DNA of 64,000 bases from Leptospira biflexa (GTDB taxonomy: Bacteria > Spirochaetota > UBA4802 > UB4802). Of this stretch, positions 3,113-41,037 are shown piece after piece. How positions within the stretch are numbered: position 1 is the first letter of the stretch; the number at the start of each line of letters is the position of its first letter. The position numbers and the translations under genes were made by a program. The notes beneath the pieces are model-generated. The model was not told the DNA's origin and did no database searches. It saw only the letters and a list, made by a program, of their open reading frames with translations. The stretch covers positions 11,314 through 75,313 of the forward strand of contig DYLU01000002.1 of assembly GCA_020721905.1 (NCBI GenBank). The letters are read 5' to 3'.

Positions 3113-3154
3113 GAAATTTATAATTTTGTTACTATATTAAACGGGGGTTACATA

Positions 3155-8873: not shown

Positions 8874-9122
8874 GTTCACGCCTCCTACGAAACTTTGATA
8901 ATAATAGTTCAATGTTTTGTATGGTGATGTTTCTTCCCTCCTTTAATTTTTAATTTTCAATATTTCTTCTTCATGCATTTATCTCAATTACCGTATGAAA
9001 TCGATTGTTTACATAACCTTCCCAATATATTAGCCAGTTTGCATGGTCGTAGTTACAGCCATGTATAACTCTTCTGAAGATAATGTACTTATAAAGTCCT
9101 CACATTTCACACAAAATTTGTA

Positions 9123-15001: not shown

Positions 15002-15312
15002 ACAAAATACTCCATCTTTAACAAAAAAGGTTAAGTTTTTCTCACACTAAAACATGCCTTTTATATTTCAAATACTATTTAATCGCGCATAGCTAAAACA
15101 ATCTTCCCCCTGAACAAACTATGCATGCTATAAAAATACATTCTGGAATAAATATCCGATATAAATTAAAAAATAATGTTTTGTTAAAAATAATATTTGC
15201 CAAAATACATTAGAAGAAGGTACTATACTATAAACGCTAATGGGGAAAAATTCTATTTTATTACTAAAGGAAAAGGTTTTATCTTAATACTATCAAAAAA
15301 AGGTGGTGAATT

Positions 15313-15933: not shown

Positions 15934-16709
15934 TATTTAAATGTACAACATATACCAGCCTTTTAATCCTGGTTAGTATTGTTGCTTTTTTTTCTTCTGC
16001 CTATTCATCCGAATTTGATGAGCTGGACAAGCCTCCTGAAGGTATACACAAAGATCAGATAATACTTACAGGCTCAGTTTCTATTGGCATTCCTTACGGC
16101 GATCTTATTTCAGCCGAAGAAAAATTTACTAAAACTTCAACCTACACCTTTGAGAATGAAATAACTAAACTTATTTATCTATCACATTTAGCTTTTGGAT
16201 TAACAATGTCAGGAGAATATCTTCCTATCGATTATATTGGTATTCGCTCAAAACTAAGGCGCAGTGTTATAGTTCAGAATACAAATTTTGGCGCTGACTA
16301 TCAATCCTGGAAAAAAACACTGTACAGCGATTATTCTGTTTATTTTGGCCCATCTTTTCATGTTACTAATAGAAAGCCATGGGACATTAGTTTATCACCC
16401 ATGCTTGGCTATGTATTTGCTACTTATAAGCCAACTCCTATAGCCCGCGTACTTATTGATGGGTATATACCACCGCCAACACAACAGTTTTCAAGTATGA
16501 CCTATGGTGTTGATGTTATGCTCAGCATATTTTTCAGCGGGGGGCTTGTTTTCCAGATTGGTGGGGAATGGATACGTAACAATATACTATTTTCATCAAT
16601 ACCAGATGCCGTTAATCCACAAACAAACCAGATTTTTTATACAAAGAAAGATGCCACCATTGATTCCGTTCTTTTCTGTGTTTCAGCAGGTTACGCCTTC
16701 TATAATTAA
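15930..16709 (+). CDS. putative outer-membrane beta-barrel protein (259 aa)
   Basis: N-terminal hydrophobic signal. Alternating hydrophobic beta-strand pattern. Aromatic-rich C-terminus (AGYAFYN). 4-nt overlap (ATGA) with the upstream lipoprotein gene suggests translational coupling. Confidence 0.5.
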   Translation: MIFKCTTYTSLLILVSIVAFFSSAYSSEFDELDKPPEGIHKDQIILTGSVSIGIPYGDLISAEEKFTKTSTYTFENEITKLIYLSHLAFGLTMSGEYLPIDYIGIRSKLRRSVIVQNTNFGADYQSWKKTLYSDYSVYFGPSFHVTNRKPWDISLSPMLGYVFATYKPTPIARVLIDGYIPPPTQQFSSMTYGVDVMLSIFFSGGLVFQIGGEWIRNNILFSSIPDAVNPQTNQIFYTKKDATIDSVLFCVSAGYAFYN

Positions 16710-16831: not shown

Positions 16832-17821
16832 TTATTCTATTACAGCATTGCCTGTATTAACAAGCATTGAGACGACACGTGCTGTAGTTAATTTATCCTT
16901 AGTCTTCAACTTTACAGGTAACCGCAAAAACTGATGCATACATCCTCTTCGTCTGTGTTCTAATGGGAAACTTCCATCATCAAATTGCTTCTTTATACAC
17001 TGATTAAATAACCGTATCCTGAACGCTTCAGCTGTATCGTCTAAAAAAAGTGAAAACTGAATGGCATCGATGCTATCATAGTCTAAATAAAATGGGTATC
17101 CCAGCAATTCATGATTATATGCAACTCTGCACCTGCAACCAGCTTCTGTAAATATGGCATCATTGCGGAACATATAGGCGATAGCTCTTTGAAAACTATC
17201 ATTGCAATTCCTGGTATCTATTTTCATCAGGGCTTTTGCACACATGACAGTTGCAACCGCACAACTTGGAGCATCAGTATGCACTAATCCAAGTCCTTTT
17301 CCAGTACGTTTAAAAAGCAAATATTTCAGTGAATCACCAACTGAACCGATTGGGCAATACAGCCAGCCACCATCATCCCTCTGATGAGACAGAATCCATT
17401 CTATACCTTTCTCCACTTCCTTTCCCTGATATCCGCTTTCCAGCAGGTAATACACTAACTGTCCGGTAATACATGCCGTTGAACAGAAAGGTTTCCAGTT
17501 TAAAGTAAATCCGCCATCATCCTGCTGAAATTTTAGTATTTCTTTAAGAATTGAGTACACAATATTATCACTGACATTACATCCACTTTCAACAAATGAT
17601 GAAAAAAACCACATAATCCCAATACCCGGTGCATCAAAATAATCATAGGCTTTTTTATTGAGAGAATGCAAACTGATTGAATTTACTATTACTTTGCTGT
17701 CTTTTTGTACATTATTTTCTTTTAAGGCAGGAATACTTTTTAATAAAAAAAATAATGATACTGCATCATCTGCCAACCATTGGATTACATCACCATTTAA
17801 ATATTTTGATTGAATCTTCAC
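16832..17821 (-). CDS. prenyltransferase/squalene-oxidase repeat (alpha-alpha toroid) protein, 329 aa
   Basis: Three QxxDGG[FW] repeats (QQDDGGF, HQRDDGGW, KQFDDGSF), characteristic of terpene-cyclase/prenyltransferase beta repeats. No signal peptide. Confidence 0.6.
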   Translation of the reverse strand: MKIQSKYLNGDVIQWLADDAVSLFFLLKSIPALKENNVQKDSKVIVNSISLHSLNKKAYDYFDAPGIGIMWFFSSFVESGCNVSDNIVYSILKEILKFQQDDGGFTLNWKPFCSTACITGQLVYYLLESGYQGKEVEKGIEWILSHQRDDGGWLYCPIGSVGDSLKYLLFKRTGKGLGLVHTDAPSCAVATVMCAKALMKIDTRNCNDSFQRAIAYMFRNDAIFTEAGCRCRVAYNHELLGYPFYLDYDSIDAIQFSLFLDDTAEAFRIRLFNQCIKKQFDDGSFPLEHRRRGCMHQFLRLPVKLKTKDKLTTARVVSMLVNTGNAVIE

Positions 17822-22609: not shown

Positions 22610-22927
22610 TTACTGATCCTCATATTGAGGACACATTCTTGAAACACCAGGCTCAAAATTTCTGCAAACTGCCGGCCGTGTATCATAAATGGTGCAGCTA
22701 TACAGCCCATCATCATTCATAATTAAAAAAGGACATCGTTGAATTGAATGCCCATTTCGTGATGATACAAGATGGTCCCCTGCCCATACACTGCTTTCAT
22801 TCTCAATTATATGTAAGATATCATCCCTTCCTTCAGTGTGCCAGCGTTTAAAATCTTCTTCAGTGGCATAGGCAATCATATCTACAAAACAACACGCCCC
22901 ACACCGTTTACACTCTTTCCCTGGCAT
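22610..22927 (-). CDS. YkgJ/UPF0153-family putative Zn/Fe-chelating protein (CxxCxxCC)
   Basis: N-terminal CKRCGACC motif plus downstream conserved Cys residues (CPFL, CTIYDTRPAVCR), typical of PF03692. Confidence 0.7.
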   Translation of the reverse strand: MPGKECKRCGACCFVDMIAYATEEDFKRWHTEGRDDILHIIENESSVWAGDHLVSSRNGHSIQRCPFLIMNDDGLYSCTIYDTRPAVCRNFEPGVSRMCPQYEDQ

Positions 22928-22950: not shown

Positions 22951-23580
22951 TTATGATAACCCTTTCAACGCAAACTGGAATATAAATTCAATTAAATCAT
23001 CTATGGTCATCCATTCTTCCGGAGAAAACCACAACCGTGTTCTAACAATCATTGAAGCAATAAGATTCAAAGTAATTTTCTCATCTACTTTTCTGAATAA
23101 TCCCTTTTCAATTCCACGCTTAAGTATAGTGTACCCTATACAATTATATTCATCACGCAGATCCAGAATAACTTTCCTCCTTTCAGGAGAAAGATTCCTG
23201 AGCTCTGTATCAAATAATAACTTTGAAGCTCTTTTTTCCCCCAAAGTAATTTTAACATGAGTTTCTATCAATAATCGTAATTGCTGCAGGGGATCTCCAT
23301 CTTCTTTTTCCAGATACCTGATAGGATTGACGATCTCTTCCATTTCCTCTTTTAAGATTGAGAACAGTATCTCTTCTTTACTTTCAAAAAAATTGTAAAT
23401 ATTGGCAGGCCTGAAACCACATTCATTTGCAATATCCTTCATACTGGTTTCAGCATACCCTTTTTCCCAAAAAAGTACCTGTGATTTTTGCATTATCAGT
23501 GTTCTCTGTTTACCATTTTCTTTTACTACAACATCAGGCATCGATATTATCTCCTTAAACTGATAATAAATTGCTTCCAC
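22951..23580 (-). CDS. TetR/AcrR-family transcriptional regulator
   Basis: N-terminal HTH (QRTLIMQKSQVLFWEKGYAETSMKDIANECGFRPANIYNFFESKEEIL). Confidence 0.8.
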   Translation of the reverse strand: MEAIYYQFKEIISMPDVVVKENGKQRTLIMQKSQVLFWEKGYAETSMKDIANECGFRPANIYNFFESKEEILFSILKEEMEEIVNPIRYLEKEDGDPLQQLRLLIETHVKITLGEKRASKLLFDTELRNLSPERRKVILDLRDEYNCIGYTILKRGIEKGLFRKVDEKITLNLIASMIVRTRLWFSPEEWMTIDDLIEFIFQFALKGLS

Positions 23581-23683
23581 TCTACTTTAATAGCAAAGCA
23601 TTACGAATGAAATCATTGCACCATATCACAATGCTATATTCTTTAAATTTACCACATTAAAATACCATTATCGTAAATACAAG

Positions 23684-23718
23684 AAAAAAAACCTCGTACC
23701 ATATATACGAGGTTTTTT
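23684..23718. terminator. bidirectional rho-independent terminator (A-run / CCTCGTA-loop-TACGAGG / T-run)
   Basis: Sequence aaaaaaaacctcgtaccatatatacgaggtttttt read directly. Terminates the minus-strand hydratase operon. Confidence 0.7.
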
Positions 23719-23751
23719 AAAAAAAACAGGAGGTTCCTTATAACTTTATTT

Positions 23752-24521
23752 TTATTCACCCTTAAATTCAGGTTTTCGCTTTTGTGCAAACGCCATCATG
23801 CCTTCCATACAATCTTTGGTAGGAAATAGTTTTGCCAGTTCTTCCCGTTCCATTTTTAAATGCATTTCAGGAGACATTGAAGGACTGGCTGACAATACCT
23901 TCAAGATTGCTTTGACAGATAGCGGTGGCCTTTGAGCTAATTCTTCTGCAAATTTCAATACTGCACCCATAAAATCCTGTTCTTCAAAAACTTTATTTAC
24001 CAGACCTATTGCAAGTGCTTCTTCTGCCTCAAGTTGTTTTCCAAAAAGCATTAATTCTAATGCCTTTGCTCTTCCAACCAACCGAGGCAAACGTAATGTA
24101 CCGCCATAACCTGGCATAATACCTAAATTTGTCTCAGTTAAACCTATTCGTGCACCCTTTTTCATGAGCCGTATATGACATGCCATTGCCAATTCACAAC
24201 CACCACCTAAGGCATGCCCATTTAATGCAGCTATAACTGGTTTAGGATAATCTTCTATTTTGTTCCATACATCCTGGCCACGTTTCAAAAAATCAACTGC
24301 ACTGAAATCCCCAAATCCCTGTGAAAGATCCGCACCGGCACAGAAAATCTTATCGCCCGAACCCGTTATAACCAGCACACGAATATTTTTATCAATTTCC
24401 AGTGTATCCAGATACTTTCGCATAGTTTCAAAAACATCATGGCTCAGCTGATTAGCTTTAGGTTTATTAATTGTTAAAACACCAATCATCCCTTTTTGTT
24501 CTAATAATACTGCATCTGACA
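23752..24521 (-). CDS. enoyl-CoA hydratase/isomerase (crotonase family)
   Basis: Crotonase fold motifs (ITGSGDKIFCAGADL, ALNGHALGGGCELAMACH). Start corrected to ATG 24521 (MSDAVLLEQ) with SD aggagg 7 nt upstream. The track ORF extends to 24561. Confidence 0.85.
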
Positions 24522-24532
24522 TATGACACCTC

Positions 24533-25696
24533 CTATCTCCCAATTGTTTTAAACGAACCATCTATAATTTCAGGTTCTGGTTTTAGAATGTCTAATTTAA
24601 AGCGCTGTGCCAGATAATTAAGGCAATCAGTTAATTGTTGTGGTTGGACTCCTGATGCCAGTGCAAATGGCCCAGCAAATGCATTCATCCCATATTTTAC
24701 ACCATCATCAATATCCTGAACACCAGCAGCAATACCTTCTTTATATACCTTTACTGCTTCATTAACCTGGACTGCCATAAGATGGAGCGGTGTTATTTCT
24801 TCAGTATCCGGCATCTCAGGAATAATAGCTTTACCATCCTTCCATTCATATATGCCTTTCCCGCTCTTCATCCCAAGATAGCCTTTTTCCAGGCATCCAA
24901 GCAAAAATTTTCCTGGTTTATACCGGGGCGATAGTGTCTGTGCATAATATTCCAGTGTATGGCAGAAAACATCCAGCCCAACAAAATCAGCTGTTTCAAA
25001 AGGAGCCATTTTAACACCCATTTTCTTCATTTTTCCATCTATTTGTGCGGGATGGATTTTTCCTTCATCTAAAATAGCACTAAGTAATGCCTGATTAGGT
25101 GCACTGATTCTGTTAACAATAAAACCCGGTCTATCTTTCAAAACTTTTACGGGGAATTTATCAATTTTCTTTGTTAATTCAAACAAAATATTAATCGTAT
25201 TCTCCGATGTCTTTGCGCCATAGATTAACTCAACCAGTTTCATCCTGGTTACAGGGTTGAAATAATGCATTCCAGCAAATCGCTCAGGATTTGTGACAGC
25301 GGTAGCTATTTCAGTAATGCTCATGGTAGAAGTGTTTGTTGCAAGTATTGCATCAGAAGCGCATGCGGATGAAGCTTTTGCAAATACATCCTTCTTCAAT
25401 TGCATATTTTCCGGTACAGCCTCAATGATTACATGAGCATCCGATACTCCTTTTTGTAAATCTGTTGTTATACTTATTTTTCCAAGAACTTCATCAACAG
25501 TTCCCTGCAATTTCCCTTTTGATGCAAGGAAATCTAAACTTTCCTTTACTTTTTTTATCGCATTATCAAGGAATTCCTGTTTAACATCTATCATAGTAAC
25601 CATGAACCCATTTTGAGCGCACACCTGTGCTATGCCATGACCCATTGCCCCCGAACCTATAACGGCAATTTTCTTTACATCATTAATATTTTTCAT
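24533..25696 (-). CDS. 3-hydroxyacyl-CoA dehydrogenase (NAD-binding, with C-terminal extension)
   Basis: Rossmann motif IAVIGSGAMGHGIA. 3HCDH N- and C-domains. Start corrected to ATG 25696 (MKNIND), with the SD ggaggt lying within track codons 2-3. Confidence 0.85.
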   Translation of the reverse strand: MKNINDVKKIAVIGSGAMGHGIAQVCAQNGFMVTMIDVKQEFLDNAIKKVKESLDFLASKGKLQGTVDEVLGKISITTDLQKGVSDAHVIIEAVPENMQLKKDVFAKASSACASDAILATNTSTMSITEIATAVTNPERFAGMHYFNPVTRMKLVELIYGAKTSENTINILFELTKKIDKFPVKVLKDRPGFIVNRISAPNQALLSAILDEGKIHPAQIDGKMKKMGVKMAPFETADFVGLDVFCHTLEYYAQTLSPRYKPGKFLLGCLEKGYLGMKSGKGIYEWKDGKAIIPEMPDTEEITPLHLMAVQVNEAVKVYKEGIAAGVQDIDDGVKYGMNAFAGPFALASGVQPQQLTDCLNYLAQRFKLDILKPEPEIIDGSFKTIGR

Positions 25697-25723
25697 AATT
25701 ACCTCCATTTATAAAAATAATAG

Positions 25724-26920
25724 CTATTTAAGCTCCTTACTTGACATTTCCAGTATGTTGCGAGCAATAATCAAATGCTGTATCTGTCCGGTACCTTCAA
25801 AAATATCCATAATCTTGCTATCCCTCATCCATTTTTCTGCTAAATAGTGAGTTGAATATCCCACCGGCCCAAGCAATTCACTGCATCGCTGGGTTATCAA
25901 GGTTGCATACCTGCCTGCTTTAGCTTTTGCCATTGATGCTTCTAAGTTATTAAACTGGTTATTATCAGCCATCCAGGCAGCACGCCAGGTTAAAAGTCTC
26001 ATAGCTTCAACATTAGCATCCATCAAATACCACTCACGCTCAACTGCAGAAACATTTGATAAATTCTTCTTATAATCAAAAGTATATCCTTTCTTTTCAT
26101 ATTGTTCCCGGGTAAATTCAACAGCTGCACGTGCAATACCTGTTGCCATTGAAGCAACCAATGGCCTGGTATTATCAAATGTTTTCATGACACCTTTGAA
26201 TCCCTCCGTGGACATTTTCACTTCAGGATCCCCCAATATGTTATTATAAGGAATTCTGCAATCGCTGAGCACAAAGGTACCAGTATCAGAACCCCTGATG
26301 CCTAATTTATGCTCTAAATGCTCCAGAGTAAAACCAGGAGTCCCTTTTTCCACAACAAATGATTTGATTCCAGATTTCCCGGCTTTTTTATCAACTGTCG
26401 CCCATACAACCACCACTTCACTTCTGTCTGCGCAGGTAACAAAAATCTTTTCTCCATTGAGTACCCAGTAATCGCCATCACGAGTAGCGGTTGTTGTAAT
26501 AGCTCCTGAATCAGAACCTGCGCCCGGTTCTGTAATTGCCATAGCAGCCCACTTATTACCAAAACGTTCCAGCTGTTCATCATTAGCAACTGCCAAAATG
26601 GCCGCGTTCCCTAAACCAGCATTTGGGAATGACAATAAAAGAGCTGCATCTCCCCAACACATTTCTTCAATGGTCACTACCATCCCCAGGTTTGCTCCGC
26701 GTTTTGGCTTCTTTACTTCACCCGAAGCAGAAGATTCACCCTCTTTCTTTTTCTTAGGGCGGGCCATTACCTTTATCCCTCTGAACATATCAAGTTCCTT
26801 AGGATATTCATGCTCGGCTTCATCATATTTCCTTGAGATTGGACGCAGAACACCTTCTGCCAGTTTATGCATGTTATCCTGTAATGTTTTTATATAATCC
26901 GGTGTTACTAATTGAATCAT
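25724..26920 (-). CDS. acyl-CoA dehydrogenase with Lys-rich insertion (398 aa)
   Basis: ACAD C-terminal motif DIFEGTGQIQHLIIARNI. Start corrected to ATG 26920 (MIQLVTPDY) with SD ggagga 5 nt upstream. The track extension to 27049 overlaps the upstream ACAD. Insert ARPKKKKEGESSASGEVKKPKRG lies near the N-terminal domain. Confidence 0.85.
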   Translation of the reverse strand: MIQLVTPDYIKTLQDNMHKLAEGVLRPISRKYDEAEHEYPKELDMFRGIKVMARPKKKKEGESSASGEVKKPKRGANLGMVVTIEEMCWGDAALLLSFPNAGLGNAAILAVANDEQLERFGNKWAAMAITEPGAGSDSGAITTTATRDGDYWVLNGEKIFVTCADRSEVVVVWATVDKKAGKSGIKSFVVEKGTPGFTLEHLEHKLGIRGSDTGTFVLSDCRIPYNNILGDPEVKMSTEGFKGVMKTFDNTRPLVASMATGIARAAVEFTREQYEKKGYTFDYKKNLSNVSAVEREWYLMDANVEAMRLLTWRAAWMADNNQFNNLEASMAKAKAGRYATLITQRCSELLGPVGYSTHYLAEKWMRDSKIMDIFEGTGQIQHLIIARNILEMSSKELK

Positions 26921-26939
26921 TGTTGTCCTCCTCACACTA

Positions 26940-28037
26940 TTAAATAATTGCCATGGCTTCACTAATTGCAATACTACGCCCATTACGATAATATCGCTCA
27001 ACAGGATGATCCCTGATATACCCATGGCCACCAAGAATCTGAACCCCATAATCAGTAAGTTTCATAGTCATTTCTCCAGCATAAATCTTTGCAAGGAATG
27101 ACTCACGTTTTGCATCCATGCCTAACTCAATAGCTGATGCAGCCTTCCATGTTAATAGCCTCATTGCATCAACTTCATAAGCCATTTCAGCTATCATAAA
27201 AGCTATGGATTGCCTGCTGGCTATGGGATCACCAAACTGCTGGCGTTCTTTTGCATATTTCCTTGCGTATTCATATGAAGCACGTGAAATGCCTGTTCCA
27301 ATAGCAGCCATTGCAGTTCTTGTTCTCTGGATTAGCCAATGAAATGCTGTTTCATCCCCTAATTTGTTTCTTTCATGAATTGTACAATTTTCAAACGTAA
27401 CTTCAAAAGTTGGCAGTGCCCACCAACCGCAATTTTTTTCTTTTTCTCCAACAGATAGTCCTTTTTCATCTTTATCTACTATAAACAGATGTGGATTGCC
27501 CTCATAATTTGCTATAACTATCATATGCAACGCTTCATCAGCAAGGGGAACAAAGCACTTTTTCCCATTTATAACATACGAGTTAGCCTTCTTTTCAGCT
27601 TTTGTTTCACAATTCCATACATCAAAACCCACACTAAGTTCGTTAATTGCCAGTGATGCCGGAACAAATGAATCACTGGAAAATTCCGGAAGATACTTTT
27701 CCTTTTGCTCTTTTGAGCCTAAATGAACCAGGGGGAGTACAAAGAGAGCAGGCAGCATTGCATAGACTGCAAAGCTCATATCTCCAAAAGCCAGTTCCTC
27801 AAGAACTAAAGAATGGAGAATTGGTGAACTCCCCATACCATATCCACCATATTCTTCAGGGATCATTGACTGAATTATACCTAGTTCCCAGAATTTTTGG
27901 ACTGCCTGTTTATCCAATTGCCTTTTTTCATCCCATTGGTGAATAGAATCTATCACTGTAGCCTGAACAAGCTGTCGGACAGTATCCTGCATCATCTGCT
28001 GTTCTTCAGATAATGCAAAACTTATTTCTTCTACCAT
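26940..28037 (-). CDS. acyl-CoA dehydrogenase family protein (365 aa, short)
   Basis: ACAD three-domain layout. C-terminus GGHGYIRDHPVERYYRNGRSIAISEAMAII has the canonical YEGT replaced by SEA. Adjacent to the second ACAD, so possibly a heteromeric partner. Confidence 0.8.
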   Translation of the reverse strand: MVEEISFALSEEQQMMQDTVRQLVQATVIDSIHQWDEKRQLDKQAVQKFWELGIIQSMIPEEYGGYGMGSSPILHSLVLEELAFGDMSFAVYAMLPALFVLPLVHLGSKEQKEKYLPEFSSDSFVPASLAINELSVGFDVWNCETKAEKKANSYVINGKKCFVPLADEALHMIVIANYEGNPHLFIVDKDEKGLSVGEKEKNCGWWALPTFEVTFENCTIHERNKLGDETAFHWLIQRTRTAMAAIGTGISRASYEYARKYAKERQQFGDPIASRQSIAFMIAEMAYEVDAMRLLTWKAASAIELGMDAKRESFLAKIYAGEMTMKLTDYGVQILGGHGYIRDHPVERYYRNGRSIAISEAMAII

Positions 28038-28053
28038 ATAATAACCTCCTTAA

Positions 28054-28091
28054 TAAAATAAGTACTGACATGTCAGTACTTATTTTATTAT
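28054..28091. promoter_or_regulatory. perfect 38-bp palindrome AATAAAATAAGTACTGACATGTCAGTACTTATTTTATT, candidate TetR operator of the beta-oxidation operon
   Basis: Read directly. Lies between the TetR stop (28105) and the ACAD SD/start (28044-28037). Shares the core TACTGACATGTCAGTA with the second site at 28838-28860. Confidence 0.6.
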
Positions 28092-28104
28092 TGAAATAAG
28101 TCAA

Positions 28105-28719
28105 CTATTTTTTATTAAAAATACCATGTGCAATAATGTTAGAGGCCTTATCAGATATTGCTTCTAAATCGCCAATTAGCATGTTGTCATCCATTGTTAT
28201 AGTCAAATAATAATGGGCTAACCGGAAGACTCCTCCAGCAATTAGATTGGCCATAAAATTTAGATCCATCTGTTTATCAATATTATTGAATTTCACTGCA
28301 ATATTAAGATCAGCAATAATCATATTAATTAATTTGTTTTCAAAATGCTGAATTTTTTGCTCAAAATGATCTGGCAAGCCTAAACCGGCACGTAAAATTA
28401 TATTTGCCCGGTCTCTATCTTCAAAGAAAAATCTGAATGCTTCATACAACCTTTTTTTAAGATACATATATGGAGAAATTGTTTCTAAATCTTCTTTAAC
28501 CGATAATTCATTGATATAGTTTTCCCATTCAATTAAAAATCTTTCCAGTAACGATATAAAAAGATGTTCCTTATTGGAAAAATATTGATAAACAGTTCCC
28601 CGACCAATTTTTGCCGATTCAATAATATCTGAAATTTGTGTTGCATAATAGCCCTTTCCCGAAAATAACCTTTTTGCATGAAGCAATATTTTATCTCTTG
28701 TATCATCTGCTCTGGTCAT
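28105..28719 (-). CDS. TetR/AcrR-family transcriptional regulator
   Basis: N-terminal HTH (RDKILLHAKRLFSGKGYYATQISDIIESAKIGRGTVYQYFSNKEHLF). Flanked on both sides by related palindromes. Confidence 0.8.
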   Translation of the reverse strand: MTRADDTRDKILLHAKRLFSGKGYYATQISDIIESAKIGRGTVYQYFSNKEHLFISLLERFLIEWENYINELSVKEDLETISPYMYLKKRLYEAFRFFFEDRDRANIILRAGLGLPDHFEQKIQHFENKLINMIIADLNIAVKFNNIDKQMDLNFMANLIAGGVFRLAHYYLTITMDDNMLIGDLEAISDKASNIIAHGIFNKK

Positions 28720-28837
28720 TATGCCTCCTTTGTTTTTTTCAACTCAATGACAATGAGTAGCAAAAAACAATTACATTCTTAAAAAGAAATTTAAAAAAAT
28801 TATTTTTTTTTAATAAATTATTCTTGACAAATCAAAA

Positions 28838-28860
28838 TAATACTGACATGTCAGTATTAC
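28838..28860. promoter_or_regulatory. second palindromic site AATACTGACATGTCAGTATT in the divergent TetR/SCP2 promoter region, just downstream of a TTGACA -35 hexamer
   Basis: Read directly. TTGACA at 28823-28828 precedes it. Same core as the 28054-28091 palindrome. Confidence 0.6.
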
Positions 28861-28921
28861 AAGCAAATTTTTTATATTTGCAAAATATTTTACATAATAT
28901 TATTTTTTAAGGAGGATCAAC

Positions 28922-29479
28922 ATGGTTATTGCACCAAATACTTCAATTGATCAATTTCTCACAGAAATTATGCCAAAAGCAGCAACGGAAATGCTTCAAA
29001 ATTCCAATGCACCCAAAGAACTTGGTGGCACTGAAATCACCATGGTTGTTGAAGTTAATGGTAAATCCTATGGATTCAAAGTTAAAGATGGCAAAAATAT
29101 TGAAACATGTGGTGATATCGCAAAACCTATGCTGAGATTAAAAATATCCGAAGCTGATTTAAAGAAAATGATTGAAACCAATAATCTCGATATGCTGTTA
29201 GGCATGCAGAAGGATCTGACAAGAGCCCGATATAATGCTCTATCTTCTTTGAAAGGTAGTTTTATTGCCAAATTAAAAAATGACGATGGTTCTGAATTTA
29301 CCATTGAAGCAATACTTAACGGTGCAACATCACCACAATCAATTTTCCGTATGACAACAAAAGACTCAGCTGCTTTGATGAAAAAGGAAACAAATCCTGT
29401 TAATCTTTTCATGTCAGGTGCAATGAAAATCGAAGGTGATATGAGTTTTGCAATGGCAACCCAACCCCTATTCACTTGA
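28922..29479 (+). CDS. SCP2 (sterol-carrier-protein-2-like) lipid-binding domain protein
   Basis: SCP2-like C-terminal pattern (LFMSGAMKIEGDMSFAMATQPLF). 185 aa. Strong SD aaggagga. First gene of the plus-strand ligase/thiolase operon. Confidence 0.65.
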   Translation: MVIAPNTSIDQFLTEIMPKAATEMLQNSNAPKELGGTEITMVVEVNGKSYGFKVKDGKNIETCGDIAKPMLRLKISEADLKKMIETNNLDMLLGMQKDLTRARYNALSSLKGSFIAKLKNDDGSEFTIEAILNGATSPQSIFRMTTKDSAALMKKETNPVNLFMSGAMKIEGDMSFAMATQPLFT

Positions 29480-29492
29480 TAGATATGCTTTA

Positions 29493-29532
29493 CATCTCAA
29501 CCACATTTTTCATGTGGTTGAGATGTTTTTTT
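29493..29532 (+). terminator. hairpin CATCTCAACCACAT-ttttc-ATGTGGTTGAGATG followed by T7 (possible attenuating terminator)
   Basis: Read directly. Perfect 14-bp stem, then ttttttt. Lies between the SCP2 gene and the ligase gene. Confidence 0.6.
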
Positions 29533-29554
29533 ATCGATCACATGGAGGACAACA

Positions 29555-31432
29555 ATGGAAACTTTACCCTGGTACAAAGAATATAAAGTTTTAGGTATAC
29601 CAAAAACATTTAAGCCTTATCCTGATAAACCTGTATATGATATTCTTGAAATAGCTGCAAAAAAATACAAAAATAATGGCCTTTTACAAAAGGATTATTT
29701 TATATCTTATCCGCAACTTCTTGAGTATGTAAACAGACTGGCTTCACGCCTACAGTCTTTTGGACTGATCAAAAATGATATTATTGCAACGATTTTACCA
29801 ACTTCTACAGAATTTATAATTGCTGATTACGCAATTTCAAAAGCAGGGCTCATCCATCTGCCATGCAGTTCACTTGAACCTGCTGAAGCTCTTGAACACA
29901 AATTTAAAGAAGGTAAGCCTAAAGCTATAATTTGTACCAGCAACGATATTAAAATTGTCACCCACTTAATAAAAAAGACCAGTGTCAGAGCTATCATCAT
30001 TGCAGACACACGTACCAGCAACTTTGTTCCAACTATCGATACCAATAAAATTAAAATACCAAGCTCCTCAATTTATGAGTTATACTCATTAATCCAGAAT
30101 TCTTCAGGAAACATTAATCCAGTTCCTATTAATGTAGAAACTGATATCGAAACATTAATTTTTACAGGTGGTACCACAGGTATTCCAAAAGGCTGTATGC
30201 TCACACATAGAAATATATATGCTAACTGTATACAGAATCTCCATGCATTAGGTGCCGGAGGATTGACATTCAAGGGGGCAATATCGGTTATATTGGGATT
30301 ACCATTTTTTCATACCTATGGGCATTGCCTTATGCATACAATGATGCTTTTTGGATTCAATATCATCATTATCAACGATCCACGTGATACTAAATCAATG
30401 GTTGAAAATATAAAGAAGCACTATCCGGTTATGCAGATAGGTGTACCAGCTCAATTCATGAAATTAGCTAAAGAAGATCTCAGCGGTATAGGCATAATTG
30501 GTCTTTCAGGATCGGCTCCTCTATCTGAATCGACACAGGAAGAATTTGAAAAACGTTCAAATAGCGGCATAATGGAAGGTTATGGTCTTTCAGAGATGTC
30601 CCCAGTGACACACCTTAATCCTTCAGTGATATACCGTATTTTAGGAGGGCGTTTTGGTGTCCGATTAGTATCTCTCTTATCATCAATTCCCGGAAATAGT
30701 TACTTAACCAATCAGCTCTTTCGTTTGATAGGGACAAGAAACTTTGGCTGGATTTTTACTAAAATTATTTCATATCGCATGAAAAAAACAAGTCAAAAGC
30801 CCGGAAAGAAATCTGTAGAAAAACGAAGAACAATTGGTGTTCCATTCCCCGACACTGAAGTACGTTTTCTTGATTTTGAAACTGGTAACATTCTGACAAT
30901 TGATGATATGCTGGCTGGAAAAAGAGCAGAGATGCTTTTAAAGGGACCACAGCGTATGTTAGGATACTGGCCAAAACCTGATAGTGGCTGTGATGCTGAA
31001 GGTTTCATTCATACCGGTGACATAGTACAGATAGACTCTAATGGTTATTTTTACATTGTTGATCGTTCCAAGGATATGATTAATGTCTCAGGTTTCAAAG
31101 TATATTCAAAAGAAATTGATGACATCGCTGGTGAACATCCACATGTTGAAGCAGCTGCAACTGTTGGAATACCTAATCCAGAAAAAGAAGGTAGCGAAGT
31201 AGTTGTTCTTTTTGTTCAGTTGTATCCACAATACAAAAACAAAACAAAAGAACAAGATATATTAAAATACCTTCAATCAAAAGTTGCAAAATATGCAGTA
31301 CCCAAATTTATACAACTGGTAGATGAACTTCCCCGAACAGCAGTTGAAAAAGTTGATAAAAAAATATTACGGCAAATGGCTATTGATCATTTTCTACTAT
31401 CAAAAAAGAAAGCAAAAATCAAAACAAAATAA
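29555..31432 (+). CDS. AMP-dependent acyl-CoA synthetase/ligase (625 aa) with ~60-aa insertion
   Basis: AMP-binding motifs (FTGGTTGIPKGCMLTH, GYGLSEMSPV). Basic insertion (RFGVRLVSLLSSIPGNSYLTNQLFRLIGTRNFGWIFTKIISYRMKKTSQKPGKK) before the C-terminal domain. SD ggagga plus ATG. Confidence 0.8.
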   Translation: METLPWYKEYKVLGIPKTFKPYPDKPVYDILEIAAKKYKNNGLLQKDYFISYPQLLEYVNRLASRLQSFGLIKNDIIATILPTSTEFIIADYAISKAGLIHLPCSSLEPAEALEHKFKEGKPKAIICTSNDIKIVTHLIKKTSVRAIIIADTRTSNFVPTIDTNKIKIPSSSIYELYSLIQNSSGNINPVPINVETDIETLIFTGGTTGIPKGCMLTHRNIYANCIQNLHALGAGGLTFKGAISVILGLPFFHTYGHCLMHTMMLFGFNIIIINDPRDTKSMVENIKKHYPVMQIGVPAQFMKLAKEDLSGIGIIGLSGSAPLSESTQEEFEKRSNSGIMEGYGLSEMSPVTHLNPSVIYRILGGRFGVRLVSLLSSIPGNSYLTNQLFRLIGTRNFGWIFTKIISYRMKKTSQKPGKKSVEKRRTIGVPFPDTEVRFLDFETGNILTIDDMLAGKRAEMLLKGPQRMLGYWPKPDSGCDAEGFIHTGDIVQIDSNGYFYIVDRSKDMINVSGFKVYSKEIDDIAGEHPHVEAAATVGIPNPEKEGSEVVVLFVQLYPQYKNKTKEQDILKYLQSKVAKYAVPKFIQLVDELPRTAVEKVDKKILRQMAIDHFLLSKKKAKIKTK

Positions 31433-31457
31433 TAATCAGAGAACAAGAGAGGTACCA

Positions 31458-32636
31458 ATGAGAGAATGTGTATTTATTGATGGTGTGAGAACACCCAACG
31501 GAAGAGCTCATCGTGAAAAAGGCTGGTTCAGAAACTTAAGGCCTGATGAGCTTTTAACACCAGTGTACAATGCACTATTTGAGCGAAACAGTAAAGTTGC
31601 CCCTGGTATGATTGATGCTGTTTTTGTTGGTTGTGCTAATCCATCAGGCATGCAGAACGATATCGGCAGGTTAGCATGGTTAGCATCTGGACTACCAGAT
31701 TCAGTCCCTACCAATACTTTGACCAATCAATGTCCATCCGGCATGTCTGCCACCATGCATGCCGCACGAGCAATTATGACCGGTGAAGCAGATATCATCA
31801 TAGCTGCTGGCATAGAGGATATGGAAAAAGTACCAATGGGTGCCAATATGGATTTCCCTCCACGCTTGTTGAAATACTATAATGGAGCGGATCTTTTAAT
31901 GGGAGCTACTGCCGAAAAAGTAGCTGAGAAATGGAATATATCTCGAGATGACATGGAAAATATGGCATACTGGTCAAATAAAAAGGCATGGGAAGCAACA
32001 CAAGCCGGCAAATTCAAAAAGGAGATAGTTCCAATAATGGGTCTTGATGATAATGGAAATGAATTCTTAGTAGATAGGGATCAATGGATTCGCGAAAAGG
32101 TAGATAGGGAAAAAATGAAAACCATGATGTCACCATTCAAGCCCAATGGCGTTGTAACAGCAGCAACATCATCACCGCTGACACAGGGTGCTTCAGCACT
32201 ACTTCTCATGAGTAGAGAAAAAGCTGATAAATTGGGACTCCCGTATACATATAAATACTCATATGGAGTATTAGCCGGATGTGATCCTACTGTAATGGGA
32301 ATTGGACCAATTCCTGCTATAAAGAAACTTGTTGCACGGACTGGTTTGAATCTAGACGAAGTGGGAGCAATTGAACTGAATGAAGCTTTTGCAAGTCAGT
32401 CATTAGCATGTATACGTGAACTTAAACTAGATAATGACAATGCTCCATTTAAGCGTGTGAATGTTTGGGGCGGTGCTATTGCTTTAGGTCATCCGTTAGG
32501 TGAATCAGGTGCACGTATTATTGTAACGTTGCTTAATGTGTTACAAACTGAATTCCCGAATGCGAAATATGGACTTGCTTCGCTATGTGGTGCTTTTGGC
32601 AATGCAGGAGCATTACTGGTTGAAAAAGTTAATTAA
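31458..32636 (+). CDS. thiolase (acetyl-CoA C-acyltransferase / 3-ketoacyl-CoA thiolase), 392 aa
   Basis: N-terminus MRECVFIDGVRTPNG. Active-site Cys context NQCPSG. C-terminal GHPLGESGARI and CGAFG motifs. Start corrected from track 31323 to ATG 31458 (SD gagagg). The upstream 45 codons overlap the ligase. Confidence 0.85.
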   Translation: MRECVFIDGVRTPNGRAHREKGWFRNLRPDELLTPVYNALFERNSKVAPGMIDAVFVGCANPSGMQNDIGRLAWLASGLPDSVPTNTLTNQCPSGMSATMHAARAIMTGEADIIIAAGIEDMEKVPMGANMDFPPRLLKYYNGADLLMGATAEKVAEKWNISRDDMENMAYWSNKKAWEATQAGKFKKEIVPIMGLDDNGNEFLVDRDQWIREKVDREKMKTMMSPFKPNGVVTAATSSPLTQGASALLLMSREKADKLGLPYTYKYSYGVLAGCDPTVMGIGPIPAIKKLVARTGLNLDEVGAIELNEAFASQSLACIRELKLDNDNAPFKRVNVWGGAIALGHPLGESGARIIVTLLNVLQTEFPNAKYGLASLCGAFGNAGALLVEKVN

Positions 32637-32662
32637 CCAAATTATTTTATACTGAGTGTACA

Positions 32663-32700
32663 TTTCCGCCGCCAGGTGCGGCGGAAATTAAATCTTAATT
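32663..32700 (+). terminator. GC-rich hairpin TTTCCGCCGC-caggt-GCGGCGGAAA followed by a weak T-rich tail
   Basis: Read directly downstream of the thiolase stop. Perfect 10-bp stem. T-tract interrupted (ttaaatcttaatttt). Confidence 0.5.
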
Positions 32701-32777
32701 TTAGTTCATAATTTATGTGCACATAAATAGTCATACCAAATAAATGTAACAATTTTAATTGCAAAAGGAGGTTTGTC

Positions 32778-33416
32778 GTGAAACGATTTTTAACTATCTT
32801 TTTAACAATTATTTTTGCAGGTATCTCAATCCTTGTTTTTTCACAACAATCAAACTGGAAATTAGTACATGAAAGTAAAGAAGATCAAGCTTTCTTACAA
32901 ATTTTCACTCGTGATATCCCCGGTTCGCCTTATAAAGAATTTAAGGGTGTAAGCTTTTCTGATATTCCTTTTGATATTGCTCTCAAAGTTATTCAGGACT
33001 ACAATAATTATCACAAATGGTATGGCATGTGTAAAGCATTGTATCCAATAAATGTGCGCAACCCAAAAGATCTTGATATGTATTTTATCCTTGACCTTCC
33101 TGTTGTTACAGATCGCGATGTTATTGTTAAAGTTGAATGCGGCTGGGATGAGAAAAAAGGGACCGCCTGGGTAAACATGACATCAGTAAATAATAGTACA
33201 TATAAAAATGACAGCGGTTTAGTGCGTATGACATCTTTAAAAGGAAGATGGGATATAATCAAAAAAGATGATAACCATGTAGAAGTTATTTATCAGGTAC
33301 ATGCTGAATTAGGAGGATCTCTGCCAGCCTGGGTGGTCAATATTGCAGCAAAAGATCAACCGTTAAAGACTTTAAAAGGTGTTTATAAATACAGTAAAAA
33401 GATACGCGATAAGTAA
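32778..33416 (+). CDS. secreted START/SRPBCC-like lipid-binding domain protein (212 aa)
   Basis: N-terminal signal/anchor (MKRFLTIFLTIIFAGISILVFS). START-domain-like features (W...ALYPINVRNPKDLDMYFILDLP...SLPAWVVN). SD aaggagg. Confidence 0.55.
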   Translation: MKRFLTIFLTIIFAGISILVFSQQSNWKLVHESKEDQAFLQIFTRDIPGSPYKEFKGVSFSDIPFDIALKVIQDYNNYHKWYGMCKALYPINVRNPKDLDMYFILDLPVVTDRDVIVKVECGWDEKKGTAWVNMTSVNNSTYKNDSGLVRMTSLKGRWDIIKKDDNHVEVIYQVHAELGGSLPAWVVNIAAKDQPLKTLKGVYKYSKKIRDK

Positions 33417-33443
33417 AAATAAGAATATACTTATTGATAAAAA

Positions 33444-33474
33444 AGGGGCATTTTGATATATGCCTCTTTTTTTA
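33444..33474 (+). terminator. rho-independent terminator (AGGGGCAT-loop-ATGCCTCT, then T8)
   Basis: Read directly after the START-domain gene. One G-U wobble in the stem. Confidence 0.55.
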
Positions 33475-33560: not shown

Positions 33561-33950
33561 ATGGTAATGGTTTTTATACTGATAGTAGGCATTTATGTAA
33601 TCACCATTGGACTGTTAGAACTTGTAATACCTGCCCGCATGTTACAATTATGGATTAAAATTTCTTCAAGCAGGTTGTATTATCTTTATGGAATTCTATT
33701 AATAATAGCGGGATTCCCCCTAACTCAGGTACCATCATCCAACCCTTTATCTACCCCACTTTTCATTGTTGGATTAATAGTGGTCTTTTCTGGACCGTTC
33801 ATTCTAATTTATCCTGAAAAGATAAAAAACATTTTTTTTCAGGGACTTGAAGAACTTGGACAAAAAGGAAGCCGCTTTGCTTTGATTATTGATGCAATAG
33901 CTCGAATTGTCACAGGAATATTATGTATAGCTGCGTATTTGCTTAGTTAA
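33561..33950 (+). CDS. small integral membrane protein (129 aa, ~4 TM)
   Basis: Track ORF. Strongly hydrophobic helices. No motif recognised. Confidence 0.4.
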   Translation: MVMVFILIVGIYVITIGLLELVIPARMLQLWIKISSSRLYYLYGILLIIAGFPLTQVPSSNPLSTPLFIVGLIVVFSGPFILIYPEKIKNIFFQGLEELGQKGSRFALIIDAIARIVTGILCIAAYLLS

Positions 33951-39222: not shown

Positions 39223-41037
39223 ATGGGTTACACACATCTATCTCAGGTGTTCTGGGATCAGGTTAAAAAGTATGGTGATAATAAGGTAGCTCTTCGATAC
39301 AAGCCAAAAGATGAGTGGATCGAGTATACCTGGAAGCAATTTGGTGATATGGTACATAATACCAGCAAAGCATTAATTGAATGCGGTATTGGCGAACAGG
39401 AAACAGTGGGAATATTTTCACAAAATATGCCCCAATGGTCAATAGCAGACATTGGTTCATTATGTATACGGGCAATCCCTGTCCCTATTTATGCAACCAA
39501 CACTGCAAAACAGGCCGAATACATCATCAACCATGCAGAAATAAAAGTGATATTTGTTGGAGATGCCGAACAATACTCCAAAGTCATGCAGATACTCCCT
39601 GAAAATACATTTTTGCAGAAGGTTATTGTATTCAAAGAGACTGTCCCAATACAAAAATCAGATAAAATAATGTATTTAAGCGATTTTTTGAAAATTGGGC
39701 AGCAGTCAACTAAAGATAATGAAGTCAAAGAAAGGATGAGCAGAGGGAAATTAGATGATCTTTTAACTTTAATTTATACATCTGGCACCACTGGTGAACC
39801 CAAGGGTGTAATGCTAACTCACTCAAATGCCCTTTTTCAAAGAGAACAGCATGATTTACGACTGATTGATCCAAATGAAAATGATATATCACTGGCATTT
39901 TTGCCATTAAGCCATGTATTTGAACGCATATGGACATACTATGTGTTTGCAAAAGGTATGACCAATAATTACCTGGAGGACCCGGCAAAGATTGTTGAAT
40001 TTATTCAGGAAGTCAAACCTACCATCATGTGTGCTGTTCCACGCTTCTATGAAAAGATTTATGCAACAGTATTTAACAGATTAGAAAGCGCTCCTCCTGC
40101 AAAGCAAAAACTTTTCAAATGGGCAGTTAAAGTAGGTTCTCAGCATAATAACAAAAAGAAAGATCAGCTTTTTATATCACCAATGTTGCGCCTGAAATAT
40201 AAAATAGCTGACGAACTTGTACTCAAAAAAATACGGGATGTTGTGGGCGGAAGAATAAAATTCTTCCCCTGTGCGGGAGCTCCCCTTTCACAGGAAATTG
40301 AGGAATTCTTCTATGCCTGTGGCATATTTATTTGTTATGGTTATGGATTAACGGAGACCACAGCAACCGTTACCTGCCATGAACAGTATAATTTTAAATT
40401 TGGTGCAGTAGGCAAACCGCTTCCCAATGTCGAGGTCAGGATTGATCCCAACAATGGCGAGATTTTAGTCCGTGGTGGCAATGTAATGAAAGGCTATTAC
40501 AAAAAGCCAGAGGCAACTGCTGAAGTGCTTTCATCTGATGGATGGTTCAGAACCGGTGATGCCGGATTCTTTGAAGAAAATGGTGAACTCAGAATTACTG
40601 AGCGAATCAAAGACCTCATGAAAACATCAGGCGGGAAATACATCGCTCCTCAGATGATAGAAAGTACCATTGGCGCCGACCACTATATTGAACAGATTGC
40701 TGTTATTGGTGATCAGCGTAAATATGTTACTGCACTGGTGGTACCTTCATTCCTGGCTCTGGAAGAATATGCAAAAGCCCATAATATATCATATACAAGT
40801 AAAGAAGACCTTATCTCAAAACCCGAGATTATTGAATTTTACCGGCAGCGTATAGAGGAAATGCAGAAGGAATTTGCACGCTTTGAAAAGATAAAAAAAT
40901 TTACCCTTCTCCCTCAGGAATTTACCGTTGAATCAGGTGAGATAACTCCAACATTAAAACTTAAACGCAAAGTTATTGCAGAAAAGTATAATGATATCAT
41001 TGATGAAATGTATAAGGATGATAAGGGTGAAAAATAA
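39223..41037 (+). CDS. long-chain-fatty-acid--CoA ligase (AMP-forming, 604 aa)
   Basis: Motifs YTSGTTGEPKGVMLTH, GYGLTETT and TGDAGFFEENGELRITERIKDLMKTSGGKYIAPQ. Sigma-70-like promoter TTGACT-17-TGtTAAAAT at about 39137-39170. Confidence 0.85.
   Translation: MGYTHLSQVFWDQVKKYGDNKVALRYKPKDEWIEYTWKQFGDMVHNTSKALIECGIGEQETVGIFSQNMPQWSIADIGSLCIRAIPVPIYATNTAKQAEYIINHAEIKVIFVGDAEQYSKVMQILPENTFLQKVIVFKETVPIQKSDKIMYLSDFLKIGQQSTKDNEVKERMSRGKLDDLLTLIYTSGTTGEPKGVMLTHSNALFQREQHDLRLIDPNENDISLAFLPLSHVFERIWTYYVFAKGMTNNYLEDPAKIVEFIQEVKPTIMCAVPRFYEKIYATVFNRLESAPPAKQKLFKWAVKVGSQHNNKKKDQLFISPMLRLKYKIADELVLKKIRDVVGGRIKFFPCAGAPLSQEIEEFFYACGIFICYGYGLTETTATVTCHEQYNFKFGAVGKPLPNVEVRIDPNNGEILVRGGNVMKGYYKKPEATAEVLSSDGWFRTGDAGFFEENGELRITERIKDLMKTSGGKYIAPQMIESTIGADHYIEQIAVIGDQRKYVTALVVPSFLALEEYAKAHNISYTSKEDLISKPEIIEFYRQRIEEMQKEFARFEKIKKFTLLPQEFTVESGEITPTLKLKRKVIAEKYNDIIDEMYKDDKGEK

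Follow-up and report, generated by a model that had tools for sequence, protein, structure and literature searches.

Heteromeric acyl-CoA dehydrogenases (ACADs) are, in the searchable literature, discussed only for steroid catabolism, with the PimCD-like dicarboxylate enzymes as a suspected further case. In these α2β2 enzymes, the α subunit binds the isoalloxazine ring of flavin adenine dinucleotide (FAD), carries the catalytic Glu and forms the substrate site, while the β subunit contacts the ADP-ribose of the cofactor; each heterodimer holds one FAD and one active site (PMC11153573; PMC8399759—both of which summarise primary work and provided the defining features used here). In the present study, we describe two adjacent ACAD genes, ACAD-A and ACAD-B, on a 64-kb stretch of spirochaete DNA (GenBank assembly GCA_020721905.1, contig DYLU01000002.1; the whole stretch is referred to as the window, and positions are those of the window). 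They belong to a cluster of two divergent operons (22951–33472), tetR–ACAD_A–ACAD_B–HADH–ECH on the minus strand and SCP2–ligase–thiolase–START on the plus strand, and look like an obligate heteromer with a fatty-acid rather than a steroid context.

As reference systems we considered ChsE4–ChsE5 (FadE26–27), ChsE1–ChsE2 (FadE28–29) and IpdE1–IpdE2 of Mycobacterium tuberculosis, Tcur3481–3483 of Thermomonospora curvata and Scd1AB of Pseudomonas. The present pair resembles these steroid enzymes in that the genes adjoin, that one subunit has the isoalloxazine motifs, the catalytic Glu and the pocket while the other keeps only the residues binding the ADP-ribose of its partner's FAD, and that the catalytic subunit has a proline at the start of helix E. 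It differs from them in lacking close descent, in a β-like subunit that, although truncated at its C-terminus, retains a Glu where the catalytic one would be, in a Lys-rich loop in the α-like subunit, and in a gene context that consists of a straight-chain FadA/FadB-type cycle plus an SCP2 protein, in anaerobes. PimC/PimD, the 'large/small subunit' pimeloyl-CoA dehydrogenase of Rhodopseudomonas palustris, is likewise a two-gene ACAD from a bacterium that grows anaerobically, encoded in a β-oxidation operon that includes a dedicated ligase; for this enzyme and related dicarboxylate ACAD pairs a heterotetramer is only suspected, and the SCP2, START and long-chain-type ligase genes linked to our pair point to hydrophobic monocarboxylates instead of dicarboxylates. 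The nearest kin of both subunits, in sequence as in fold, are the homotetrameric short-chain (SCAD), medium-chain (MCAD) and butyryl-CoA dehydrogenases (Bcd; 1jqi, 1ukw, 5ol2, 4m9a), with which they share the three-domain fold and the position of the catalytic Glu. However, every subunit of those enzymes has both sets of FAD motifs, whereas here the sets are split over two polypeptides.

Two adjacent dehydrogenases divide the flavin-site motifs between them

ACAD-A (365 aa; 26940–28037, minus strand) and ACAD-B (398 aa; 25724–26920, minus strand) are separated by 19 nt, matching the gene adjacency of heteromeric ACADs. ACAD-B most likely starts at MIQLVTPD (26920) and not at 27049, in agreement with the N-termini of its homologues. 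We aligned both proteins with the solved structures of rat SCAD (1jqi), Clostridioides difficile Bcd (5ol2) and a Thermus thermophilus ACAD (1ukw), and counted motif conservation in 81 ACAD-A and 74 ACAD-B orthologues from 80 genome loci. Whereas a canonical homotetrameric ACAD carries TEPxxGSD, W/F-I-T/S, ERxxFGxP, QxxGGxG and YEGT(S/N)EIQ in one chain, each of the two proteins has a complementary subset of these motifs.

ACAD-B retains the same-subunit FAD and catalytic motifs ITEPGAGSD, IFVTCA and IFEGTGQIQ, which, judged by the conserved ACAD motifs, we take to be equivalent to MCAD Thr136 and Ser142, Thr168, and Glu376, Thr378 and Gln380, respectively. Among its orthologues, T130, S136, E375, T377 and Q379 are present in 74/74 and T162 in 73/74, with a single Ser. 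The motifs that contact the flavin of the neighbouring subunit are gone: ERxxFGxP(I/L) is replaced by KKGYTFDYKKNL and QxxGGxG (QxxGGxGY) by ELLGPVG, and across the orthologues Glu or Asp takes the place of the Gln, Pro that of the second Gly (74/74), and the ERxxFG segment is replaced.

ACAD-A shows the reciprocal pattern. Its own-flavin motifs are degenerate (NEL..GFD, CFVPLA), the own-FAD contact positions of its orthologues being occupied by N (70/81), F (73/81) and P (81/81), and the protein ends in ISEAMAII, five residues past the Glu position, so that the last helix is absent. The neighbour-subunit motifs, by contrast, are kept as ERQQFGDPI and VQILGGHGY, and R265, G269, Q333, G336 and G337 are found in all 81 sequences. 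A preliminary description of the locus, made from the sequence alone, had noted SEA for YEGT in this shorter protein; the altered region is real, and the Tyr, Gly and Thr context is lost together with the last helix, but the Glu itself remains aligned with the catalytic one.

Because neither an A–A nor a B–B dimer would hold a complete flavin site, the two proteins look like an obligate heteromer of the α2β2 type, in which ACAD-B would be the α-like and ACAD-A the β-like subunit. At the level of sequence, the split of the motif sets corresponds to one FAD site per heterodimer. The preliminary description had raised an α2β2-type heteromer and recommended an alignment of the FAD-binding residues and the catalytic Glu; the reciprocal and near-invariant motif loss, together with the gene adjacency documented below, supports this idea at the level of sequence and synteny, and complete, independent FAD sites—the finding it had named as contrary—occur in neither protein. 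ACAD-A and ACAD-B are only 26% identical to each other (88 bits) while each scores ~190 bits to ordinary ACADs, arguing for an old, fixed division of labour.

ACAD-B carries a Lys-rich loop (residues ~45–78; 26687–26788, minus strand) in which PKKKK is nearly invariant in the alignments. Described earlier as an insertion, it is indeed Lys-rich, but is rather a recomposed loop that replaces the canonical IPEEYGG loop and is ~10 residues longer; residues 56–72 are predicted to be disordered (AlphaFold2 per-residue confidence, pLDDT, <50). Pro99 and the following GLGNAA, at the start of helix E, are invariant, and the AlphaFold2 model has a helix break at residues 96–102, suggestive of an interrupted helix E. 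Prolines of helix E enlarge the pocket in long-chain ACAD (LCAD; Pro132) and in ChsE4 (Pro89; PMC11153573).

In the mechanism that we propose, ACAD-A and ACAD-B would pair as an AB dimer, probably assembling into (AB)2, with one FAD and one active site per dimer. ACAD-B would bind the FAD isoalloxazine, supply the catalytic Glu375 and shape the acyl pocket, its helix E being interrupted by the invariant Pro99 as in enzymes with enlarged pockets. ACAD-A, devoid of its own flavin site and of the C-terminal helix, would clamp the ADP part of the FAD of ACAD-B through its Arg/Phe/Gly and Gln/Gly/Gly residues.

A lineage probably separate from the steroid enzymes

In a PDB sequence search, the closest solved relatives of ACAD-A were ordinary ACADs (4m9a at 1.6e-54), and those of ACAD-B were 5ol2 (top) and 1jqi at 2.5e-57, with both subunits scoring ~188–198 bits to ordinary SCAD, MCAD and Bcd. 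The best steroid-type subunit for ACAD-A was Tcur3481 (6wy8; E 2.7e-28), at 102 bits versus ~190 for ordinary ACADs, and for ACAD-B none occurred in the top 60 PDB matches or in the top 50 Foldseek matches of its AlphaFold2 model. We rejected membership in the steroid ACADs (ChsE, IpdE, FadE26–29) on the grounds that the nearest structures are ordinary ACADs and that the NCBIfam model IpdE2 gives 42 bits versus a cutoff of 450, and membership in PimCD (TIGR03203/TIGR03204) because pimD_small reaches 83 bits (cutoff 653) and pimC_large 49 (cutoff 624). The analogy with the ChsE pairs that was drawn in the preliminary description thus finds no support as one of descent: both proteins are closer to ordinary SCAD, MCAD and Bcd, and look like a separate lineage with the same architecture as the steroid α2β2 ACADs.

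The pair and its cluster recur in two phyla

Scanning representative genomes (185,579 species), we found the ACAD-A family (361–369 aa; 71% mean column identity) at 203 loci, in uncultured Spirochaetota/Leptospirales-like metagenome-assembled genomes (MAGs), Smithella, Desulfobacterales, Desulfosudaceae and other Thermodesulfobacteriota. Adjacency could be judged, for want of sequence elsewhere, at 76 loci; in 75 of them (35/35 in Spirochaetota, 9/9 in Smithella and 31/32 in other Desulfobacterota) ACAD-B is the gene immediately after ACAD-A, the median distance between the stop codon of ACAD-A and the start of ACAD-B being 26 nt—a synteny that agrees with a heteromer.

In Spirochaetota, ACAD-B is followed by HADH in 32/34 loci and HADH by ECH in 30/33, and the cluster includes the SCP2 gene in 29/31, the ligase gene in 25/29, the thiolase gene in 27/29 and the START gene in 13/29 loci. 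Given that the same cluster recurs in dozens of genomes, the arrangement is not a product of chance. Some spirochaete genomes have two ACAD-A/ACAD-B pairs: loci L025 and L039 of MAG CALOBT01, where both copies lie within complete clusters, and loci L010 and L033 on contig CAVSFD010000002.1.

Outside Spirochaetota, the Smithella unit comprises a Liv-type ABC transporter, TetR, SCP2 (9/9 loci), ACAD-A and ACAD-B. In Desulfosudis oleivorans Hxd3 (locus L081; CP000859.1, 3709058–3730251), the order is TetR, SCP2, a 156-aa open reading frame (ORF), START, DctP, ACAD-A, ACAD-B and HADH; a corrinoid-activation (RACo-like) gene lies after HADH at this locus. Compared with the window, the Hxd3 ACAD-B is 72% identical, SCP2 is 42% identical over its full length and the same operator (see below) is present, which suggests that the module moved horizontally between phyla. 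An absence of SCP2 and START from orthologous loci would, according to the preliminary description, have spoken against its reading; this holds in part for START, which is facultative (as its 13/29 Spirochaetota loci illustrate), but not for SCP2, found in nearly all Spirochaetota loci, in all nine of Smithella and in Hxd3.

A conserved palindromic operator marks the regulon

The first gene of the minus-strand operon, in a position kept in Spirochaetota loci, encodes TetR2 (28105–28719, minus strand; Pfam TetR_N, 8e-15). A perfect 22-bp palindrome, operator O1 (28838–28859), with the halves TAATACTGACA and TGTCAGTATTA, occupies the divergent tetR2/SCP2 intergenic region, and operator O2 (GTACTGACATGTCAGTAC; 28062–28079) precedes the start codon of ACAD-A by 25 nt, making two matches in the window versus 0.05 expected. 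In 1.14 Mb of related loci, the core ACTGAC-NN-GTCAGT occurs in 90 copies (<0.1 expected), and it lies 22–132 bp upstream of ACAD-A in 41/80 loci from two phyla, including Desulfococcus, Desulfosudaceae and Hxd3. Since copies of the operator are conserved upstream of ACAD-A across loci, 'regulon', the word chosen in the preliminary description, is a fair one.

We infer that TetR2 is the cluster's own repressor. It would bind both copies of ACTGAC-NN-GTCAGT, the one in the divergent promoter region and the one shortly before ACAD-A, and acyl-CoA would presumably release it from the operator. At one related locus (L009), copies of the palindrome (12621–12634, 15156–15169 and 15342–15355) also precede the gene of a ~630-aa ACAD and adjoin a START gene, and the TetR regulon may therefore be wider than the core cluster in some genomes. 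Between the SCP2 stop and the ligase start in the window, a strong hairpin (29492–29526, plus strand) has a 15-bp stem and a T-run; it may act as a partial terminator or attenuator within the operon, holding SCP2 expression above that of the downstream genes.

A complete β-oxidation cycle, probably for long-chain fatty acids

Downstream of ACAD-B, the minus-strand operon encodes a 391-aa 3-hydroxyacyl-CoA dehydrogenase (HADH; 24533–25708, minus strand; Pfam 3HCDH_N and 3HCDH, the latter matched twice) and a crotonase-type enoyl-CoA hydratase (ECH; 23752–24561, minus strand; Pfam ECH_1, 2e-64), for which an internal Met at 24522 may be an alternative start. HADH corresponds to the whole C-terminal half of FadB/FadJ—a 'split FadB'—aligning with positions 307–622 of the NCBIfam FadB model and 307–685 of FadJ. 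The plus-strand operon contributes a 3-ketoacyl-CoA thiolase (31458–32636, plus strand), most likely starting at 31458 (MRECVFIDG). With 378.5 bits versus a cutoff of 240.55, it matches the degradative thiolase I model TIGR01930, and with 361 bits it stays below the cutoff (519) of the FadA equivalog PRK08947, making it FadA-like but not a strict equivalog. It is not of the SCP2/SCPx type, and the analogy with SCP2-type thiolases drawn earlier does not hold. The cluster thereby encodes a full β-oxidation cycle in which the thiolase is of the FadA type and HADH a FadB half.

The free-standing SCP2-fold protein (185 aa; 28922–29479, plus strand; cytoplasmic) matches Pfam SCP2 (PF02036) over residues 106–184 at 51.1 bits (cutoff 21.3), and solved SCP2 structures weakly. 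Like eukaryotic SCP2/SCPx and MFE-2, it combines the SCP2 fold with linkage to β-oxidation enzymes, as in peroxisomal systems; unlike them, it has an extra N-terminal half and is unfused to thiolase or dehydrogenase, and the thiolase adjoining it is FadA-type. We propose that it could serve as a fatty-acyl(-CoA) carrier between ligase and dehydrogenase. The last gene of the operon encodes a START-domain lipid-binding protein (32778–33416, plus strand; PF01852, 36.6 bits versus 22), which matches the bacterial START structure 3qsz at 2e-16; on inspection, its N-terminus (MKRFLTIFLTIIFAGISILVFSQ) resembles a signal peptide, and the protein is probably periplasmic.

The AMP-forming acyl-CoA synthetase, or ligase (625 aa; 29555–31432, plus strand; Pfam AMP-binding and AMP-binding_C), belongs to a family of ~611–662 aa with an internal insertion that is found in the same taxa. 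Its best NCBIfam matches are long-chain-fatty-acid--CoA ligase models, all below their cutoffs; the best FadD-type model, PRK06187, gives 298 bits versus 476, in an alignment split by the insertion. This 68-aa insertion (residues ~357–424; 30623–30826, plus strand) is flanked by the GYGLSE motif and the TIGVPFPDTE strand, contains 14 K/R versus 1 D/E (net charge ~+13), has three amphipathic segments, and is predicted to form four helices (residues 361–410; AlphaFold2 pLDDT 86–95) followed by a disordered polybasic linker. It is kept in 28/28 cluster-linked orthologues. Searches with the insertion alone gave chance-level matches only, and Foldseek returned no solved ligase of comparable length; M. 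tuberculosis FadD8 (8ivi), which aligns with the whole ligase in a single stretch, was rejected as a counterpart, as the insertion segment is unmatched. The ~60-aa basic insertion of the preliminary description is thus genuine, conserved in orthologues and absent from solved ligases, and membrane association or gating of the acyl tunnel are plausible roles for it.

At a distance of 6–10 kb from the cluster, the window also encodes a FadH-like 2,4-dienoyl-CoA reductase (Oxidored_FMN and Pyr_redox_2; 41082–43100, minus strand) and a second acyl-CoA ligase (604 aa, AMP-binding_C_3; 39223–41037, plus strand); no operator palindrome lies near either gene. Both are likely auxiliary enzymes for unsaturated fatty acids.

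Taken together, the cluster is better read as a TetR-controlled, self-contained β-oxidation module of an anaerobic spirochaete, the likeliest substrate of which is long-chain fatty acids, including unsaturated ones. The ligase would activate the fatty acid, its helical polybasic insertion plausibly holding the enzyme at the membrane or gating the acyl tunnel; the SCP2 protein would carry the poorly soluble acyl chain, the heteromeric ACAD would catalyse the first oxidation, and the crotonase, the stand-alone FadB-type HADH and the FadA-type thiolase would finish each cycle, while the periplasmic START protein may aid lipid capture. Long-chain acyl-CoA is favoured as the substrate, and somewhat more probable than not, because the enzymes are of the FadA/FadB type, a FadH-like reductase and a further ligase lie nearby, the host taxa are anaerobic fatty-acid or alkane oxidisers (Smithella, D. 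oleivorans Hxd3, Desulfatibacillaceae), ACAD-B has Pro99 and nothing in the window is steroid-specific. The paired ACADs, the SCP2 protein and the insertion-bearing ligase do take the cluster beyond a plain β-oxidation set, as had been noted, and among the substrates considered at that time the long-chain option is the one that the FadA/FadB-type cycle, the host taxa and the nearby reductase favour.

Weighing other substrates and other roles for the pair

A heteromeric pair that acts on other substrates—dicarboxylyl-CoA in the manner of PimCD, alicyclic or aryl-alkanoyl-CoA—or that works in the opposite direction, reducing enoyl-CoA together with a bifurcating electron-transfer flavoprotein (ETF), is unlikely, albeit not without supporting observations. 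The best NCBIfam matches, themselves weak, are AcrC (acryloyl-CoA reductase) and cyclohexanecarbonyl-CoA dehydrogenase; the top solved match of ACAD-B, 5ol2, is the bifurcating Bcd of C. difficile; ACAD-A favours pimD_small over pimC_large and ACAD-B the reverse; and the Liv-type transporter of Smithella and the DctP-type receptor of Hxd3 both represent types that import organic acids. Yet the scores are far below the cutoffs (218–221 versus 640, and 49–83 versus 620–650), the linked ligase, SCP2 and START proteins indicate hydrophobic lipids, partners of the FadA and FadB-half kind typify fatty-acid cycles and no ETF genes adjoin the cluster.

The preliminary description had instead envisaged that a ChsE-like pair attacks a side chain, be it of a sterol or hopanoid or methyl-branched, with SCP2 and START as sterol-type carriers, which we consider decidedly improbable. 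Heteromeric ACADs are otherwise described only in the catabolism of steroid side chains and rings (and suspected for dicarboxylates), the invariant helix-E Pro resembles that of LCAD and ChsE4, which take bulky substrates, and the eukaryotic SCP2 and START folds bind sterols. In addition, some of the host taxa degrade alkanes via methyl-branched acyl-CoA intermediates. However, we found no steroid-specific gene (MaoC-type hydratase, Ltp2/SCPx thiolase or aldolase, ring-degradation genes) in the 64-kb window, where the cycle comprises a crotonase, a FadA-type thiolase and a FadB-half HADH, and saw no racemase for 2-methyl-branched chains. NCBIfam steroid models remain far below cutoff, for the thiolase (233 versus 515) as for IpdE2, and Tcur3481 ranks only 52nd among the solved structures for ACAD-A. 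Bulky or branched substrates may nevertheless be an alternative for the ACAD pair as such.

As to the pair itself, ACAD-A would, on another account, be a pseudoenzyme without catalytic activity that binds acyl-CoA, acts as a scaffold or regulates, instead of completing the flavin site of ACAD-B. It has lost its own FAD site while keeping the Glu and much of the fold, and could still bind acyl-CoA. We regard this as very unlikely, as it leaves unexplained both why the absolutely conserved residues of ACAD-A are the neighbour-subunit FAD contacts and why ACAD-B has lost exactly those contacts. Least probable of all are two ordinary, independent homotetrameric ACADs of differing chain-length preference that are merely co-transcribed: although several ACAD paralogues are common in β-oxidation loci, both proteins match all three Pfam ACAD domains (ACAD-B weakly in the N-terminal one) and ACAD-A retains the Glu, ACAD-A has neither the C-terminal helix nor any contact to an FAD of its own, ACAD-B is without the neighbour-subunit contacts on which a homodimer would depend, these losses are complementary and near-invariant over two phyla, and the genes adjoin with short gaps in all but one of the testable loci.

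Several observations weigh against our preferred reading, an obligate heteromer that initiates the oxidation of long-chain acyl-CoA. The catalytic position is occupied by Glu in 79/81 ACAD-A sequences as well as in every ACAD-B (E375), whereas in heteromeric ACADs only one subunit carries it, the steroid β subunits being described without it. Homology does not imply long-chain specificity, as the solved structures nearest to ACAD-B are those of short-chain enzymes (SCAD, Bcd), and the AlphaFold2 model of ACAD-B is only of moderate confidence (pLDDT 73; 69–75 in the region of the helix-E break). ETF and ETF-quinone oxidoreductase genes, searched for across the whole window, were not found, and a consensus scan for promoters performed at chance in this AT-rich DNA (37 sites versus 39 expected). 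Finally, Smithella and many Desulfobacterota loci have the ACAD pair only, with or without SCP2, and lack ligase and thiolase, which confines the full pathway context to Spirochaetota.

Boundaries of the cluster and further features of the window

Every gene listed in the preliminary description is present; only two start codons and the type of the thiolase needed correction. The ACAD/HADH/ECH operon ends at an intrinsic-terminator-like hairpin (23686–23718, minus strand) with a perfect 13–14 bp stem followed by a T-run, and the plus-strand operon at a terminator-like hairpin at 33439–33472 (plus strand). Beyond the former, 3′ of the ACAD operon, lies the gene of a second, FadR-like TetR regulator, TetR1 (22951–23580, minus strand; Pfam TetR_N and TetR_C_24), which weakly matches Bacillus FadR in NCBIfam (2e-18) and occupies this position only in close relatives (loci L001, L002, L004 and L005). 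Beyond the latter, 3′ of START, a 129-aa hydrophobic ORF (33561–33950, plus strand) has no Pfam match and keeps its position only in the five closest relatives (L001–L005).

Further ORFs lacking a Pfam match are located at 4174–6855 (minus strand, 893 aa), 15930–16709 (plus strand, 259 aa) and 16832–17821 (minus strand, 329 aa). Two dispersed pairs of paralogues comprise CxxCxxCC (YkgJ-type) proteins (22610–22927, minus strand; 49086–49610, plus strand) and CsgG/LpoB-like proteins (15313–15933 and 46076–46699, both plus strand). The window further encodes the anaerobic ribonucleotide reductase NrdD with its radical-SAM activase NrdG (1037–4004, plus strand), arguing that the host is anaerobic or facultative, as well as YidC, Jag and MnmE (6868–10745), which suggests that it lies near the replication origin.

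Implications for anaerobic fatty-acid oxidation

We encountered no description of the ACAD-A/ACAD-B pair in the searchable full-text literature, and a proteome paper on D. multivorans contains nothing on paired ACADs or SCP2. Combining the above, we tentatively suggest—judging the chances as falling a little short of even—that the pair represents an unrecognised, separately evolved lineage of obligate heteromeric ACADs with one flavin per AB dimer, which would serve anaerobic oxidisers of fatty acids and alkanes (Smithella, Desulfosudis, other Desulfobacterales and uncultured Leptospirales-like spirochaetes) as a principal dehydrogenase of long-chain acyl-CoA and would have spread between phyla as a unit with a dedicated SCP2 carrier and its own TetR operator.

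If this is true, and the pair is a second, sequence-distinct heteromeric family, seen here in strict anaerobes within ordinary β-oxidation operons for fatty acids, the split-flavin-site architecture would have arisen more than once or be far older than thought, and would not be tied to steroids. The pair would also offer a concrete candidate for the first enzyme of long-chain fatty-acid oxidation in syntrophs and sulfate-reducing bacteria, where the way in which electrons pass from acyl-CoA to the quinone pool is still under study. A cultured host, D. oleivorans Hxd3, carries the module and makes direct testing possible, and the conserved operator could readily be used to mark the regulon. The SCP2 partner, itself conserved, and the insertion of the ligase suggest, in turn, how anaerobes handle poorly soluble acyl chains.

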